Position numbers and translations under genes: made by a program
The notes under the pieces: model-generated
What the model was told of the DNA's origin: nothing
Seen by the model: only the letters and a program-made list of their open reading frames with translations
Databases searched by the model: none
Source: Candidatus Magasanikbacteria bacterium RIFOXYC2_FULL_40_16
GTDB lineage: Bacteria > Patescibacteriota > Patescibacteriia > Magasanikbacterales > UBA922
Assembly: GCA_001783185.1 (NCBI GenBank)
Contig: MFQY01000042.1
Span: 553 to 41,473 of the forward strand
Direction of reading: 5' to 3'
DNA: 40,921 bases
Shown here: piece by piece, positions 4,920 through 31,780 of the stretch
Layout of the letters: the number at the start of each line of letters is the position of its first letter
How positions within the stretch are numbered: position 1 is the first letter of the stretch

Positions 4920-5120
4920 TGGAGTACATTCTTTCGGAAGAAAGAATAGATATCCCGACTTAGTCGGGATAACAGACATTGATCCTTTCTGGATCAGGAT
5001 TAGTAGACGTTTTTTACCCCGTAGTGAGCTTTGCTCTACTACTGGGCAATTGTCTTTATCACATTTATGGTGTGGAACCATGCGCCACAAGGGTGCATGG
5101 CTAAAAATACCTGAATTTTA

Positions 5121-29470: not shown

Positions 29471-30446
29471 ATTGAATAGTGAGTAATACTATCTCCGGAG
29501 GATTGAAGAGACGGAGACGAGCGCCGGATTCATTAGCGCCACTGGTGACGAAAAGTTTTGAACCATTATATTCAACCAAACCCTGATACCACGCGTGCGG
29601 GAGGTCGGTTTCTATTGTGCCGGCCGGTCCGATAAAAGGCAAGCGGACTTGTCCGCCATGAGTGTGTCCGGACAAGACCAGATCTATACCATGTTTTGAT
29701 GCTTCATAAATAGCGGTTGGATTATGTATAAGCGCTATAATTGGCAGTTCCGGATTTTCCAATTTTGCTTTATCCAGACTCTCGTAGTTTACAGCGTCAA
29801 TTAAAAATTCATCTCCGCCGAATAATAGAAAAGATTCGCCATTTACCGTTATTTTTTCTGTTTCGTTAATAAGATAACGAACGCCAAGATTTCTCATAGC
29901 TTGAGCAATTTCAGCGCTTTTGTTAGGCAGTTTAAAGCGTTTTTTTATATCAGAATCATATAAACCAACGCCATATTCATGGTTTCCGTGCACAGCATAG
30001 GTTGGTATTTTTTTAGCCACTTGCCCCAGCGGTTTGAGATAGTCAATACGGTTATCATCTTTATAATTGCCGAATGTATGGTCGCCGTCGACAAAGACTA
30101 AATCAGGATTTAAACTTAAAATTAAGTCCGCTATTCTCTGGGTATCACTTTCCTTATTAAAATCACCGACATGTATATCTGATATTAGGGCTATTTTGAG
30201 AGGTTTTTCCAAGCCGGGCAAATCAATTATTTGGCGGTTTACGGTCAGTAAATTTGGTTCTACAAAAGAACCGTAAAATAAAAAAAAGGTACCAATTAAA
30301 AGTGTGGCGGCGAAAAGCGCTGACTTATTTTTGTTTTTATATTCCCATGATTCAGGGTGTTTCCGTCTGTGATACAATAAAATAACCGCCGGCAACACGG
30401 TTGCTGAAACACAAGCAATTATTACGATATCGTAAAATAAGTCCAT
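29469..30446 (-). CDS. Membrane-anchored calcineurin-like metallophosphoesterase (YkuE/YaeI-like)
   Basis: SDIH, GDH, GNHE, HNP, SGHTHGGQ; two N-terminal TM helices; start at MDLFY (30446). Confidence 0.9.
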   Translation of the reverse strand: MDLFYDIVIIACVSATVLPAVILLYHRRKHPESWEYKNKNKSALFAATLLIGTFFLFYGSFVEPNLLTVNRQIIDLPGLEKPLKIALISDIHVGDFNKESDTQRIADLILSLNPDLVFVDGDHTFGNYKDDNRIDYLKPLGQVAKKIPTYAVHGNHEYGVGLYDSDIKKRFKLPNKSAEIAQAMRNLGVRYLINETEKITVNGESFLLFGGDEFLIDAVNYESLDKAKLENPELPIIALIHNPTAIYEASKHGIDLVLSGHTHGGQVRLPFIGPAGTIETDLPHAWYQGLVEYNGSKLFVTSGANESGARLRLFNPPEIVLLTIQ

Positions 30447-30452
30447 AGATAG

Positions 30453-30534
30453 TGCCGACGGTGGGAATCGAACCCACATGCCTTGCGGCACACGATTTTG
30501 AGTCGTGCGTGTCTGCCAGTTCCACCACGTCGGC
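30453..30534 (-). tRNA. tRNA-Leu(CAA)
   Basis: Acceptor GCCGACG/CGTCGGC, anticodon arm CACGA-CTCAAAA-TCGTG, long variable arm, GGTTCGATTCC T arm; CCA not encoded. Confidence 0.95.
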
Positions 30535-30535
30535 A

Positions 30536-30784
30536 TTATTTTATTGATTCTTTAAGCATTAATTTTATCATTCGTTTTCCTTGGGTTGTTTTTAAATATT
30601 TTTCTCGTCTGATAGTGTCCAATTTTACACAAAAAGCTTCATAATATATCAACTTTATAGGTCTGTAGTTTTTAGTAGCCTTTACCTTCCCTCGGTTATG
30701 CTCAAGCATTCGGCGTGTTAAATTATCTGATCTTCCGGTATAAAGTAGATTATTTGAAAGTTTAATAATATAAACGTAATACAT
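30536..30784 (-). CDS. Small GIY-YIG nuclease (82 aa)
   Basis: YYVYII...LYTG.S.NL.RR..EHN.G...T...RP.KLIYYE.F......RREK.LK. Confidence 0.88.
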   Translation of the reverse strand: MYYVYIIKLSNNLLYTGRSDNLTRRMLEHNRGKVKATKNYRPIKLIYYEAFCVKLDTIRREKYLKTTQGKRMIKLMLKESIK

Positions 30785-30789
30785 ATTTA

Positions 30790-30935
30790 ACGATTTTGCC
30801 CCAGTAGTAGAAGCTGTTGCTTCACTACGGGGCACCATGTATTGAGCTTTGCTCTAGTACAGGGTGAGTCGTGCGTGCCCCGCCATGTACTGAGCTCTGC
30901 TCTAGTATATGGTCTGCCAGTTCCACCACGTCGGC
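30790..30935 (-). pseudogene. Duplicated 5' half of tRNA-Leu interrupted by three short hairpin insertions
   Basis: Segments 30790-30798, 30867-30877 and 30913-30935 together reproduce 30492-30534 exactly. Confidence 0.85.
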
Positions 30936-30961
30936 TAAAAAGCATATTTGGCGACAGACCC

Positions 30962-30990
30962 ATTATAGTTTATTTTGTAAATTTTGTCAA
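30962..30990 (-). promoter_or_regulatory. Consensus sigma70 promoter upstream of tRNA fragment, GIY-YIG gene and tRNA-Leu
   Basis: Minus strand TTGACA-17-TATAAT followed by GC-rich GGGTCTGTCGCC. Confidence 0.8.
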
Positions 30991-31009
30991 TTTAGTGTAT
31001 ACTGAAGTC

Positions 31010-31780
31010 ATGACAAAAATAATCTCAGTAGTCAACCAAAAGGGAGGCGTGGGAAAAACAACCACCGCCATGAATTTGGCCGCTTTTTTAGCTGAGCTGG
31101 GCAGTTTTGTTTTGCTTGTGGATATGGACCCGCAGGCGAACGCCACCAGCGGTTTGGGACTTCAGAGAGAGGATGTGAAACACGGAATTTATGAAGCTTT
31201 GTCTGGTCAGAAACGATTTCATGATATTGTTTTTAATACCGGCCACACCGGTTTACGCATCGCGCCTGCAACTGCTAATTTAGCCGGAGCGAATATTGAA
31301 TTGGTTGATGTGGAACGCCGGGAGCATCAATTATTAGATTTATTGGAAGAAGCAAGACATGCTTACGACTATATAATTATAGACTGTCCGCCATCTTTGG
31401 GTCTTTTAACAATAAACAGTTTAGTGGCGGCGGATGAGCTTTTGATACCGGTGCAGGCGGAATATTACGCGCTTGAGGGTTTGGGACAGCTTTTGAATAC
31501 TATTCAATTGATACAGGAACATATAAAACCGGAATTAAATATTTTAGGCGCGGTTATTACCATGTTTGATAAAAGAACCAGATTGTCGGAAGATATTATG
31601 AATGAATTGTATAGATATTTTCCGGATACGATTTTTAGAAGCATTATACCAAGAACCGTCAGATTGGCGGAAGCGCCCAGTTTTGGCAAGACGATTTTAC
31701 AATATGATCCAAACGGAAAGGGAGCAAAAGCTTATGAAAGATTGGCGCGTGAAATTTTAGAAAAACACAGTAATTATTAA
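31010..31780 (+). CDS. parA: Chromosome partitioning ATPase ParA/Soj
   Basis: NQKGGVGKTT, DMDPQANAT, IIDCPPSLG, PVQAEYYALEG, LAEAPSFG; start at ATG 31010. Confidence 0.96.
   Translation: MTKIISVVNQKGGVGKTTTAMNLAAFLAELGSFVLLVDMDPQANATSGLGLQREDVKHGIYEALSGQKRFHDIVFNTGHTGLRIAPATANLAGANIELVDVERREHQLLDLLEEARHAYDYIIIDCPPSLGLLTINSLVAADELLIPVQAEYYALEGLGQLLNTIQLIQEHIKPELNILGAVITMFDKRTRLSEDIMNELYRYFPDTIFRSIIPRTVRLAEAPSFGKTILQYDPNGKGAKAYERLAREILEKHSNY

Follow-up and report, generated by a model that had tools for sequence, protein, structure and literature searches.

A small GIY-YIG nuclease gene between a hairpin-split partial copy and an intact copy of tRNA-Leu: a candidate tRNA-targeted selfish cassette in Magasanikbacteria

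Integrase islands at tRNA genes carry an integrase, duplicate the 3′ end of the tRNA gene and restore the tRNA through the duplicated segment. A mobile endonuclease open reading frame (ORF) in the mitochondrial atp6 gene of Allomyces is reported to insert within the gene and to bring or leave behind a duplicated gene end, and partial duplications have also been reported in mitogenomes. Free-standing GIY-YIG endonucleases of T4-like phages, including SegB in the T4 tRNA cluster, spread by intronless homing through break-induced gene conversion (PMC2988022). Mitochondrial double-hairpin or repetitive hairpin-forming elements are GC-rich tandem palindromes that occupy intergenic DNA and structural RNA genes and have no known transposase (PMC2800124), and the insertions in rRNA genes of CPR (Candidate Phyla Radiation) bacteria are not introns, sit at either the base or the top of stem-loops, and in some cases include a GIY-YIG ORF; many of them are short and ORF-less (PMC11270868). 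We analyzed a stretch of 40,921 nucleotides (nt) from Candidatus Magasanikbacteria bacterium RIFOXYC2_FULL_40_16 (contig MFQY01000042.1), hereafter the window, in which a small GIY-YIG nuclease gene is enclosed between a broken partial copy and an intact copy of tRNA-Leu(CAA).

On the minus strand the locus reads, in order, promoter, leader, hairpin-split copy of tRNA-Leu nt 1–43, GIY-YIG ORF and intact tRNA-Leu(CAA), and comparison with an empty allele shows that this cassette was inserted. We consider it probable, with room left for other readings, that it is a selfish nuclease cassette that targets tRNA genes, spreads in a homing-like way and uses the tRNA promoter. The observations underneath this reading are an insertion polymorphism, a linkage to tRNA genes that is specific to one part of the protein tree and crosses phyla, protein lineages specific to their target, purifying selection, a conserved design, and a fragment that matches the resident tRNA. 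The window lies on contig C42 of genome G000 (0.97 Mb in 65 contigs, 86% complete, 40.6% G+C), and C-numbers refer to G000 contigs throughout; G001 and G002 are genomes of the same genus, and G024 belongs to another family of the same order. The features of the locus, in window coordinates, are the following.

30962..30990, minus strand: sigma-70-type promoter TTGACA-17-TATAAT, a 12/12 consensus match with a 17-nt spacer
30936..30961, minus strand: 26-nt leader from promoter to pseudo-tRNA, not alignable with the G002 leader
30912..30935, minus strand: pseudo-tRNA block 1, exact copy of tRNA-Leu nt 1–24 (repeat search, 24/24)
30878..30911, minus strand: palindrome hpC, 34 nt, at the boundary of the D loop and the 3′ D stem (edge ambiguous by 1 nt)
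30865..30877, minus strand: pseudo-tRNA block 2, exact copy of tRNA-Leu nt 24–36 (repeat search, 13/13)
30834..30864, minus strand: palindrome hpB, 31 nt, first of an abutting pair in the anticodon loop (sequence reading and dispersed copies)
30799..30833, minus strand: palindrome hpA, about 35 nt, second of the abutting pair (member of a dispersed family)
30790..30798, minus strand: pseudo-tRNA block 3, exact copy of tRNA-Leu nt 35–43, ending where the anticodon stem closes
30785..30789, minus strand: 5-nt spacer before the ATG, without a Shine-Dalgarno-like sequence
30536..30784, minus strand: GIY-YIG ORF of 82 codons plus TAA (ATG at 30784, stop at 30538-30536; PF01541, E=4.5e-14)
30535, minus strand: single base from stop codon to tRNA 5′ end, the same spacing as in G024, at the Glu locus of G001 and at the Ser locus of G014
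30452..30534, minus strand: intact tRNA-Leu(CAA), sole copy in the assembly (ARAGORN; Rfam RF00005, 57.7 bits)
31010..31780, plus strand: parA, the divergently transcribed neighbor (Pfam AAA_31, E=5.8e-65)
29472..30446, minus strand: metallophosphoesterase gene downstream of the tRNA (PF00149, E=1.3e-17), also downstream of it in G002

The first-pass annotation, made from the DNA letters alone, had described this layout, and we found the promoter, blocks, palindromes, ORF and tRNA where it had placed them. It had reported that 43 nt recur without substitution and are split by three insertions; all three blocks are indeed exact, their edges being ambiguous by 1–2 nt, and the palindromes divide the direct repeat of 43 nt so that no block exceeds 24 nt, with the combined hpA and hpB insert (30864-30799) placed between the second and third nucleotides of the anticodon. 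It had also remarked that the 5′ half is duplicated and that an integrase is missing, which agrees with our finding that the repeat is the 5′ 43 nt and that tyrosine recombinases (PF00589) have no match on C42; in a search that covered tyrosine and not serine recombinases, matches were limited to C2, C31 and C26. An integrase-type tRNA island was rejected on these two grounds. An Rfam scan of the locus (E ≤ 1) matched the tRNA alone, which dismisses riboswitch, known-leader and group I intron readings; a group I intron in the anticodon loop is further contradicted by the lack of a ribozyme core and by a downstream tRNA that is complete and not divided into two exons. Finally, it had asked for confirmation of the duplication by long reads. 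In Logan contigs from four runs, none of them flagged as a possible source of the assembly, the same joins are present with 0–1 differences. These contigs measure 1931 nt (30489-31200, 1 difference), 418 nt (30477-30894, 0) and 304 nt (30708-31011, 0). The independence of the four runs is limited, since they may share sampling campaigns, and short-read contigs of other runs break at the tRNA repeat. Because contigs from four other runs cover it, the duplication is not an assembly artefact.

We found that the sites of these cassettes are occupied in some congeners and empty in others. In G002 the same promoter stands 19 nt from tRNA-Leu(CAA), with neither ORF nor fragment nor hairpins in between. 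G001 lacks the ORF: behind its promoter come a 5′ fragment of 11 nt, a hairpin, about 70 nt and then the tRNA. At Glu(UUC) in G002, which has no ORF, the gap from the upstream gene to the tRNA is 286 nt, compared with 1110 nt in G000; at the empty Asp site of G002 it is 43 nt, compared with 443 nt; and G001 has an empty Asp site and an occupied Glu site. The presence of the ORF therefore varies among congeners at three loci (Leu, Glu and Asp). The pseudo-tRNA is identical to the G000 tRNA-Leu at 43/43 positions, including three positions at which G002 differs, and because both 5′ copies share these three bases the duplicate derives from this lineage's own tRNA. Judged from its sequence, the fragment would be either young or kept identical by conversion. 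No join matching the empty allele was found in Logan contigs, which drop rare variants and are therefore silent on polymorphism within the population. The surroundings are stable: the synteny of parA and tRNA-Leu(CAA) is kept in 10/10 relatives fetched from across the order, and the only strong promoter at the locus is the conserved tRNA promoter, which is also present in G002, G001 and locus L140. This promoter (30990-30962) is the sole 12/12 match in the scanned kilobase and now lies 400 nt upstream of tRNA-Leu.

Small GIY-YIG genes recur beside tRNA genes. G000 has eight PF01541 matches, five of which lie directly next to a tRNA on the same strand (Leu-CAA, Glu-UUC, Asp, Ala-GGC and Ile-GAU), and all five have a hairpin-riddled partial tRNA copy alongside. 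Partial copies, defined as exact matches of at least 14 nt on the same strand within 400 nt with other tRNAs masked, lie near 13 of the 35 G000 tRNAs (12 when BLAST is used at a different threshold); some of them, at His, Asn, Val and other tRNAs, have no ORF. Our sample of the order comprised 31 genomes and 68 small GIY-YIG ORFs, 64 of which were placed in a tree after three fragments and one weak match (L091 and L093–L095) were omitted. A same-strand tRNA lies within 115 nt of 25/64 ORFs, and none of these 25 belongs to one well-supported clade of 30 ORFs, from which the link is wholly absent. As a label on the tree, the tRNA link changes 8 times, compared with a mean of 20.3 after shuffling, and 0/500 shuffles were as low.

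The linkage extends beyond the order. Across a phylum sample, a profile of the tRNA-linked clade matches 147/201 genomes (E ≤ 1e-10), and 16 of the best 29 loci have a same-strand tRNA within 130 nt. We then turned to a species-level collection, with a single genome for each species, and took its closest 80 homologues. For 54 of them a tRNA on the same strand lies no more than 130 nt away, downstream in 42 cases and upstream in 12; our own estimate of the chance expectation is fewer than 1 of 80. Among the 54 are records labeled Bacteroidetes, Flavobacteriales, Rikenellaceae, Melioribacteraceae, Chloroflexota, Omnitrophota, Bdellovibrionales and Actinobacteria; such labels may be wrong where they come from metagenome bins. 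Six of the 54 loci show the same layout of fragment plus hairpins, including records from outside Patescibacteria. The target tRNAs are diverse, the ORF occurs on either side of them, copy number ranges from 0 to 13 per ~1 Mb genome, and both ORF-less remnants and ORF copies containing stop codons exist. As a separate observation, tRNAs of the class with a long variable arm (Ser, Leu and Tyr) are conspicuously frequent targets among the closest 80.

Several other tRNA copies in these genomes deserve description in their own right. At C21:7274-7312, 46 nt downstream of the gene, G000 has a perfect 39-nt copy of tRNA-Ile(UAU) nt 36–74 that has neither hairpin nor ORF and also breaks in the anticodon loop. 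At C55:800-1320 (L008), two pseudo-copies in tandem, each with a single hairpin in place of its entire anticodon arm, precede tRNA-Ile(GAU); the GIY-YIG ORF begins 1 nt past this tRNA and is followed by a third pseudo-fragment with paired T-stem changes relative to the resident tRNA, as if from another tRNA-Ile. Loci L084 (G009:C6) and L077 (G010:C42) hold tRNA-like genes whose anticodon arm is a hairpin of the TCCCGA/CCCCGA type with an anticodon-like loop, and ARAGORN labels one of them 'tRNA-???(ttaa)'. G002 has a near-complete tandem copy of tRNA-Arg(CCU) with a double hairpin in its D loop. At C26:4416-4919, one of the three tyrosine recombinase genes of G000 lies ~800 nt upstream of tRNA-Arg(UCU) and a pair formed by a hairpin-riddled pseudo-tRNA-His and tRNA-His.

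The cassettes follow a conserved design, which we scored by eye in 36 loci chosen for tRNA adjacency, and in some cases for a detectable block, so that the fractions are not unbiased. When the tRNA lies downstream, the upstream copy usually starts exactly at tRNA nt 1 and stops within the anticodon (nt 33–36) or the D loop (nt 12–27). GC-rich stem-loops directly follow the 5′ block in 30/36 loci, with exactly two in tandem in at least 14. The tRNA sequence then resumes for a few bases, up to approximately the point where that arm closes, and 5–30 nt lead to the ATG; in the tightest cases the stop codon is 0–10 nt from the tRNA. Across loci the breaks lie inside the anticodon triplet or in the D or T loops. 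The exceptions are L142, which has no fragment, L116, which has a diverged one, and L064, L098, L117 and L125, which have another whole tRNA upstream. In the anticodon-type cassettes of the order the 35–36-nt 5′ blocks are exact in 6/6 and the continuation after the hairpins has a mismatch or indel in 4/6, a comparison by eye that carries little weight; elsewhere, L141 and the Asp locus have mutations in the 5′ block itself. A search for target-site duplications around the inserted hairpins gave a possible 2-nt 'CA' on both sides in the two Leu cassettes of G000 and G024 and none in the Glu, Ser or Cys cassettes.

The most direct comparison is with G024, where the parA/tRNA-Leu(CAA) site holds nt 1–36 of that genome's own, different tRNA-Leu, two hairpins unrelated to those of G000 at the same anticodon position, nt 35–43, 5 nt and the ATG, with the stop codon one base before the tRNA. 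Here too the 5′ half is identical to the genome's own tRNA (exact blocks nt 1–36 and nt 35–43). Since a cassette with different hairpins carries them at the same anticodon-loop position, hairpins at the loop apex belong to the regular design. In the species-level collection, the three nearest relatives (72, 71 and 59% identity) all lie upstream of tRNA-Leu(CAA), two with differently broken fragments and one without a fragment. In total, the Leu(CAA) site is occupied in G000, G024, L140, L141 and L142, and the Glu(UUC) site in G001, G013 and G015.

The encoded protein is small and, by its sequence, functional. PF01541 is the sole Pfam domain in its 82 amino acids (52.9 bits, the curated cut-off being 22.6; E=4.5e-14; residues 1–70), NCBIfam and PHROGs assign it to no family, and the only PDB sequence matches are 1zg2 (E=5.2e-05) and 1ywl (E=0.0025), both UPF0213. 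All of 15 tRNA-linked homologues share Y5, Y15, G17, R25 and H29, and conservation of E61 reaches 90% or more; the window protein has every one of these residues; we take these residues to be the two Tyr motifs, the Arg, the His and the metal-binding Glu. The ratio of nonsynonymous to synonymous substitution rates (dN/dS) within the Leu(CAA) lineage is 0.10–0.12 relative to the nearest relatives, which indicates purifying selection. Because the motif residues are conserved and dN/dS is this low, the gene encodes a working protein, one too short for a DNA-binding domain of its own. Its nearest relatives are in records named Candidatus Magasanikbacteria. In the tree of the order, proteins cluster by target tRNA: the Leu(CAA) proteins of G000 and G024 are sisters (100/92) at 49% identity, and the Glu(UUC) trio forms a clade (94/83). 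These features place it among the minimal GIY-YIG proteins of the UPF0213/Slx1-like type, an uncharacterised family of stand-alone domains of about 80–110 amino acids that lack auxiliary domains. In part of the survey by Dunin-Horkawicz et al. (PMC1564403), minimal prokaryotic GIY-YIG domains cluster with Slx1 and are treated as putative repair enzymes, and Slx1-like proteins are distinguished by lacking the C-terminal Asn typical of the UvrC/I-TevI branch. Among the matches listed there (12/18), the only connection to tRNA is an Slx1-like domain fused to a TrmH tRNA methyltransferase.

The palindromes belong to families that are dispersed in G000. hpB and hpC are 87% alike. Copies or part-copies of hpA lie on C63, C15 (two), C5, C9, C1, C21 and C53 and at C42:5569-5598; copies of hpB lie at C62:5231-5257, C62:5317-5343 and C26:6002-6023; and copies related to hpC lie on C62 and C26, beside pseudo-tRNA-Asn and pseudo-tRNA-His. 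The hpA and hpB pair recurs in opposite orientation in the T loops of pseudo-tRNA-His and pseudo-tRNA-Asn. Another double hairpin of G000 is present at C26:5792-5837 and also, within the D loop of a pseudo-tRNA-Asn, at C62:4855-4900, and an identical 23-nt hairpin is common to G000 (C26:5792-5814) and the Leu cassette of G024, two genomes whose parA genes match at 68%; these genomes also share a CCATG..CATGG hairpin family. The tandem GC-rich stem-loops, the dispersed related copies and their absence from the G002 allele are the marks by which double-hairpin or repetitive hairpin-forming elements are recognized. Perfect GC-rich hairpins with a stem of 7 bp or longer number 429 in G000; some of them are probably terminators, and 48 lie within 400 nt of a tRNA where 10.9 are expected. 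Over 15 loci the summed folding energy is -493 for the sense strand and -486 for the antisense strand, without G-U asymmetry; this equal folding of both strands fits palindromes at the level of DNA, and an interpretation as RNA-level structures was set aside for the same lack of asymmetry. Y1 transposases (IS200/IS605-like, RAYT) gave 0 PF01797 matches in G000, whose 86% completeness means that absence is not proven.

Further palindromes were seen elsewhere. The window has an intergenic palindrome island at 4953-5102, with no ORF of 80 amino acids or more, that contains a hairpin of the TCCCGA..TCGGGA type, a chimera of hpA-like outer arms and an hpB-like center, and a member of the CCATG..CATGG family, which is represented in the G024 Leu cassette too. 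Copies or half-copies of hpA also lie in protein-looking stretches of G000 (C21:6024-6057, C1:13851-13884 and C53:35155-35167), which recalls the in-frame palindromic elements of other reduced genomes. The Leu hairpins of L140 and L141 differ by a paired stem change, GAGAC..GTCTC versus GAAAC..GTTTC, a hint that selection or conversion may keep the palindrome. Two GIY-YIG genes of G000 outside the tRNA clade (L001 and L004, C22:6750-7500 and C1:3200-3650) are likewise flanked by GC-rich palindromes and short direct repeats of another family (GTCATTGCGAGG-like), and these flanks suggest an association of hairpins with small GIY-YIG genes that may reach beyond the tRNA-linked clade.

The first-pass annotation had proposed, as its core inference, a minimal selfish nuclease element that uses a tRNA promoter and is associated with palindromes. 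Two of the checks it had suggested came out in favor of this idea: an empty allele was found in the congener G002, and enrichment beside tRNA genes was found within the genome (5/8), the order (25/64) and across phyla (54/80), with a palindrome at the break of the fragment in 30/36 loci. It had further argued that insertion outpaces substitution here; three insertions and no point mutation are what is seen, and given the G024 cassette this is not the sole reading of them. Its further suggestion, that the element may generate or mobilise short palindromes, is weakened by G002, where hairpin-riddled pseudo-tRNAs occur and the tRNA clade of GIY-YIG genes has no member. As in homing endonucleases, there is a presence/absence polymorphism with an intact empty allele, and related nucleases are found at the same target across genomes. 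We propose that the ORF would be transcribed from the tRNA's own promoter and that normal 5′ processing, one base past the stop codon, would free the tRNA from the co-transcript, so that the host would retain its only tRNA-Leu(CAA). The cassette may spread by recombinational repair that the nuclease initiates, a gene conversion of the homing-like kind. Homology arms could then be provided by the tRNA sequence that flanks it on either side, which would explain why the upstream fragment matches the resident tRNA and why related nucleases hold the same tRNA in different lineages. Loss by deletion would leave empty sites or ORF-less remnants. In the non-functional tRNA copy the palindromes sit where DNA stem-loops have their apex (D, anticodon and T loops), and they may be moved by the nuclease, be its cis-acting sites or be independent colonizers.

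Five points weigh against the selfish cassette. First, the 82 amino acids comprise the nuclease domain only and a DNA-binding module for a long asymmetric target is absent; because there is no DNA-binding domain beyond the nuclease fold, unlike in characterized GIY-YIG homing endonucleases, recognition of a long target is doubtful. Second, G002 has nearby partial copies at 6 of its 40 tRNAs, some with double hairpins, and no GIY-YIG gene of the tRNA clade, keeping one paralogue of the other clade; the load of pseudo-tRNAs and the presence of a tRNA-clade ORF were compared in two genomes (13/35 in G000, 6/40 in G002). Third, the duplication reaches into the 5′ leader at Asp, His, Ile and Chloroflexota loci, and these leader-spanning duplications, together with the close relative L142 that has no fragment, indicate that the fragment is not obligatory. 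Fourth, since the restored tRNA is identical to the presumed target, nothing obvious protects the occupied allele from being cut. Fifth, the Leu(CAA) lineage is old (49–72% identity) and under purifying selection, which also fits a host function. A single staggered cut that produces a long target duplication was a separate candidate, and it was rejected since several duplications run into the leader.

It is possible, and to our mind rather less than probable, that the nuclease acts on structure rather than on a target sequence. On this explanation a structure-specific Slx1-like enzyme would cut the apices or bases of DNA stem-loops and junctions and would drive the insertion of double hairpins, sometimes with its own gene and with partial duplication of the target; tRNA genes would be hot spots, and hairpins within a retained tRNA stem would form a three-way junction that is the nuclease's cis site. 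Such an enzyme would be consistent with stem-loops right after the 5′ block in 30/36 loci and two in tandem in at least 14, with breaks in the anticodon triplet or the D and T loops and fragments that end where the arm closes, and with the same layout in records from outside Patescibacteria. The presence of hpA and hpB in both orientations relative to the tRNA, the strand symmetry of the hairpins (-493 vs -486), the 23-nt hairpin identical between G000 and G024 despite a 68% parA match, and a genome, 86% complete, in which no Y1/RAYT transposase was found point the same way, as does the clustering of minimal prokaryotic GIY-YIG proteins with Slx1 in the cited part of PMC1564403. However, G002 has double-hairpin pseudo-tRNAs with no tRNA-clade ORF and only a paralogue of the other clade, many hairpins are ordinary intergenic or terminator-like ones (only 48/429 are within 400 nt of a tRNA), hairpin sequences differ between orthologous Leu cassettes, and no consistent target-site duplication was found. 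Tentatively extended, the large UPF0213/Slx1-like clade might be the engine of a minimal mobile system in many phyla, one not recognized before, in which a structure-specific nuclease of 80 amino acids would attack apices of DNA stem-loops that tRNA genes extrude and would so seed hairpins, its own gene and tRNA duplications that let the host survive.

We regard it as unlikely that the gene has been domesticated or benefits its host, as a nuclease for maintenance of the tRNA locus, for repair or for RNA processing, with the hairpin-bearing pseudo-tRNA as a structured regulatory leader. The dN/dS of 0.10–0.12 and the persistence of the gene at parA/tRNA-Leu(CAA) in several lineages would suit such a role, and partial precedents are the fusion of an Slx1-like domain to TrmH (PMC1564403) and the hairpin-regulated expression of T4 homing endonucleases (PMC2988022). 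A host function is nevertheless difficult to reconcile with presence and absence that vary among congeners at three loci, with the many different tRNAs targeted and the ORF on either side of them, with copy numbers from 0 to 13 per ~1 Mb genome, and with ORF-less remnants and stop-containing copies.

Coincidence is very unlikely, that is, slippage that duplicates tRNA flanks, unrelated palindromes that colonize them and a GIY-YIG gene that happens to sit in the same permissive spot. Partial copies without an ORF are what such slippage would leave, including the hairpin-less copy of tRNA-Ile(UAU) nt 36–74, those at His, Asn and Val, and the six loci of G002. Yet the identical spacing of stop codon, 1 nt and tRNA recurs in separate lineages, and the clustering of the proteins by tRNA in the tree and the 54/80 homologues beside a tRNA largely refute this explanation. 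A mis-joining of the tRNA half and the hairpins in metagenome assembly, which a 65-contig draft and the breakage of other runs' short-read contigs at the repeat might suggest, can be dismissed, because contigs of other runs bridge the junctions with 0–1 differences and dozens of unrelated assemblies show this architecture as well.

If the selfish cassette is the correct reading, it would supply the first biological role for a very large family of small nucleases (UPF0213/YhbQ-like) that have solved structures and no known function. It would define a compact and recognizable cassette, composed of a tRNA fragment, loop-apex hairpins, a nuclease of 80 amino acids and an intact tRNA, and would account for the dead partial copies beside over a third of the tRNA genes in the reduced G000 genome. 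It would also give the mitochondrial double-hairpin elements, for which the mechanism of movement has remained obscure, a counterpart in bacteria, and would make such cassettes a source of mis-annotated pseudo-tRNAs and of breaks in metagenome contigs. If a partnership between nuclease and palindromes is real, tRNA genes would be continuously remodeled by that partnership rather than by integrases.

A full-text search of open-access main texts retrieved no published description of the tRNA link, and in none of the systems compared here does a bare Slx1-like domain come together with both a partial duplicate of a tRNA and palindromes at loop apices. As in integrase islands, the tRNA target is restored through a duplicated tRNA segment; unlike in those islands, the 5′ part is duplicated, the element is ~400 nt long and no tyrosine recombinase lies on the contig. 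As in the mobile ORFs of fungal mitochondria, several of which are reportedly GIY-YIG, an essential gene is kept intact by a duplicated segment with a dead partial copy beside it; the fungal ORFs target protein genes and duplicate the 3′ end, whereas the present cassette is in a bacterium and uses a tRNA and usually its 5′ part. The phage gene segB is likewise an intron-free GIY-YIG gene among tRNA genes, and expression of T4 Seg genes rides on host signals, often gated by RNA hairpins. However, Seg proteins carry DNA-binding modules where the window protein is a bare 82-aa Slx1-like domain, and segB, in the part of the review cited, is phage-borne and lies between tRNA genes with neither a partial target copy nor loop-apex palindromes, whereas the present cassette is chromosomal (PMC2988022). 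The mitochondrial double-hairpin elements share the dispersed families, the frequent arrangement of two in tandem and the presence or absence between close relatives, but they are organellar, and the cited part of their description reports neither a preference for the apices of tRNA copies nor a consistent link to a nuclease gene (PMC2800124). The CPR rRNA insertions, in an article whose main text does not contain the word 'tRNA' on a text search, come from the same phylum, occupy stem-loops of structural RNA and sometimes carry a GIY-YIG ORF; they differ in that they stay within a functional rRNA gene (PMC11270868), while the tRNA of the present cassette is kept intact by duplication.

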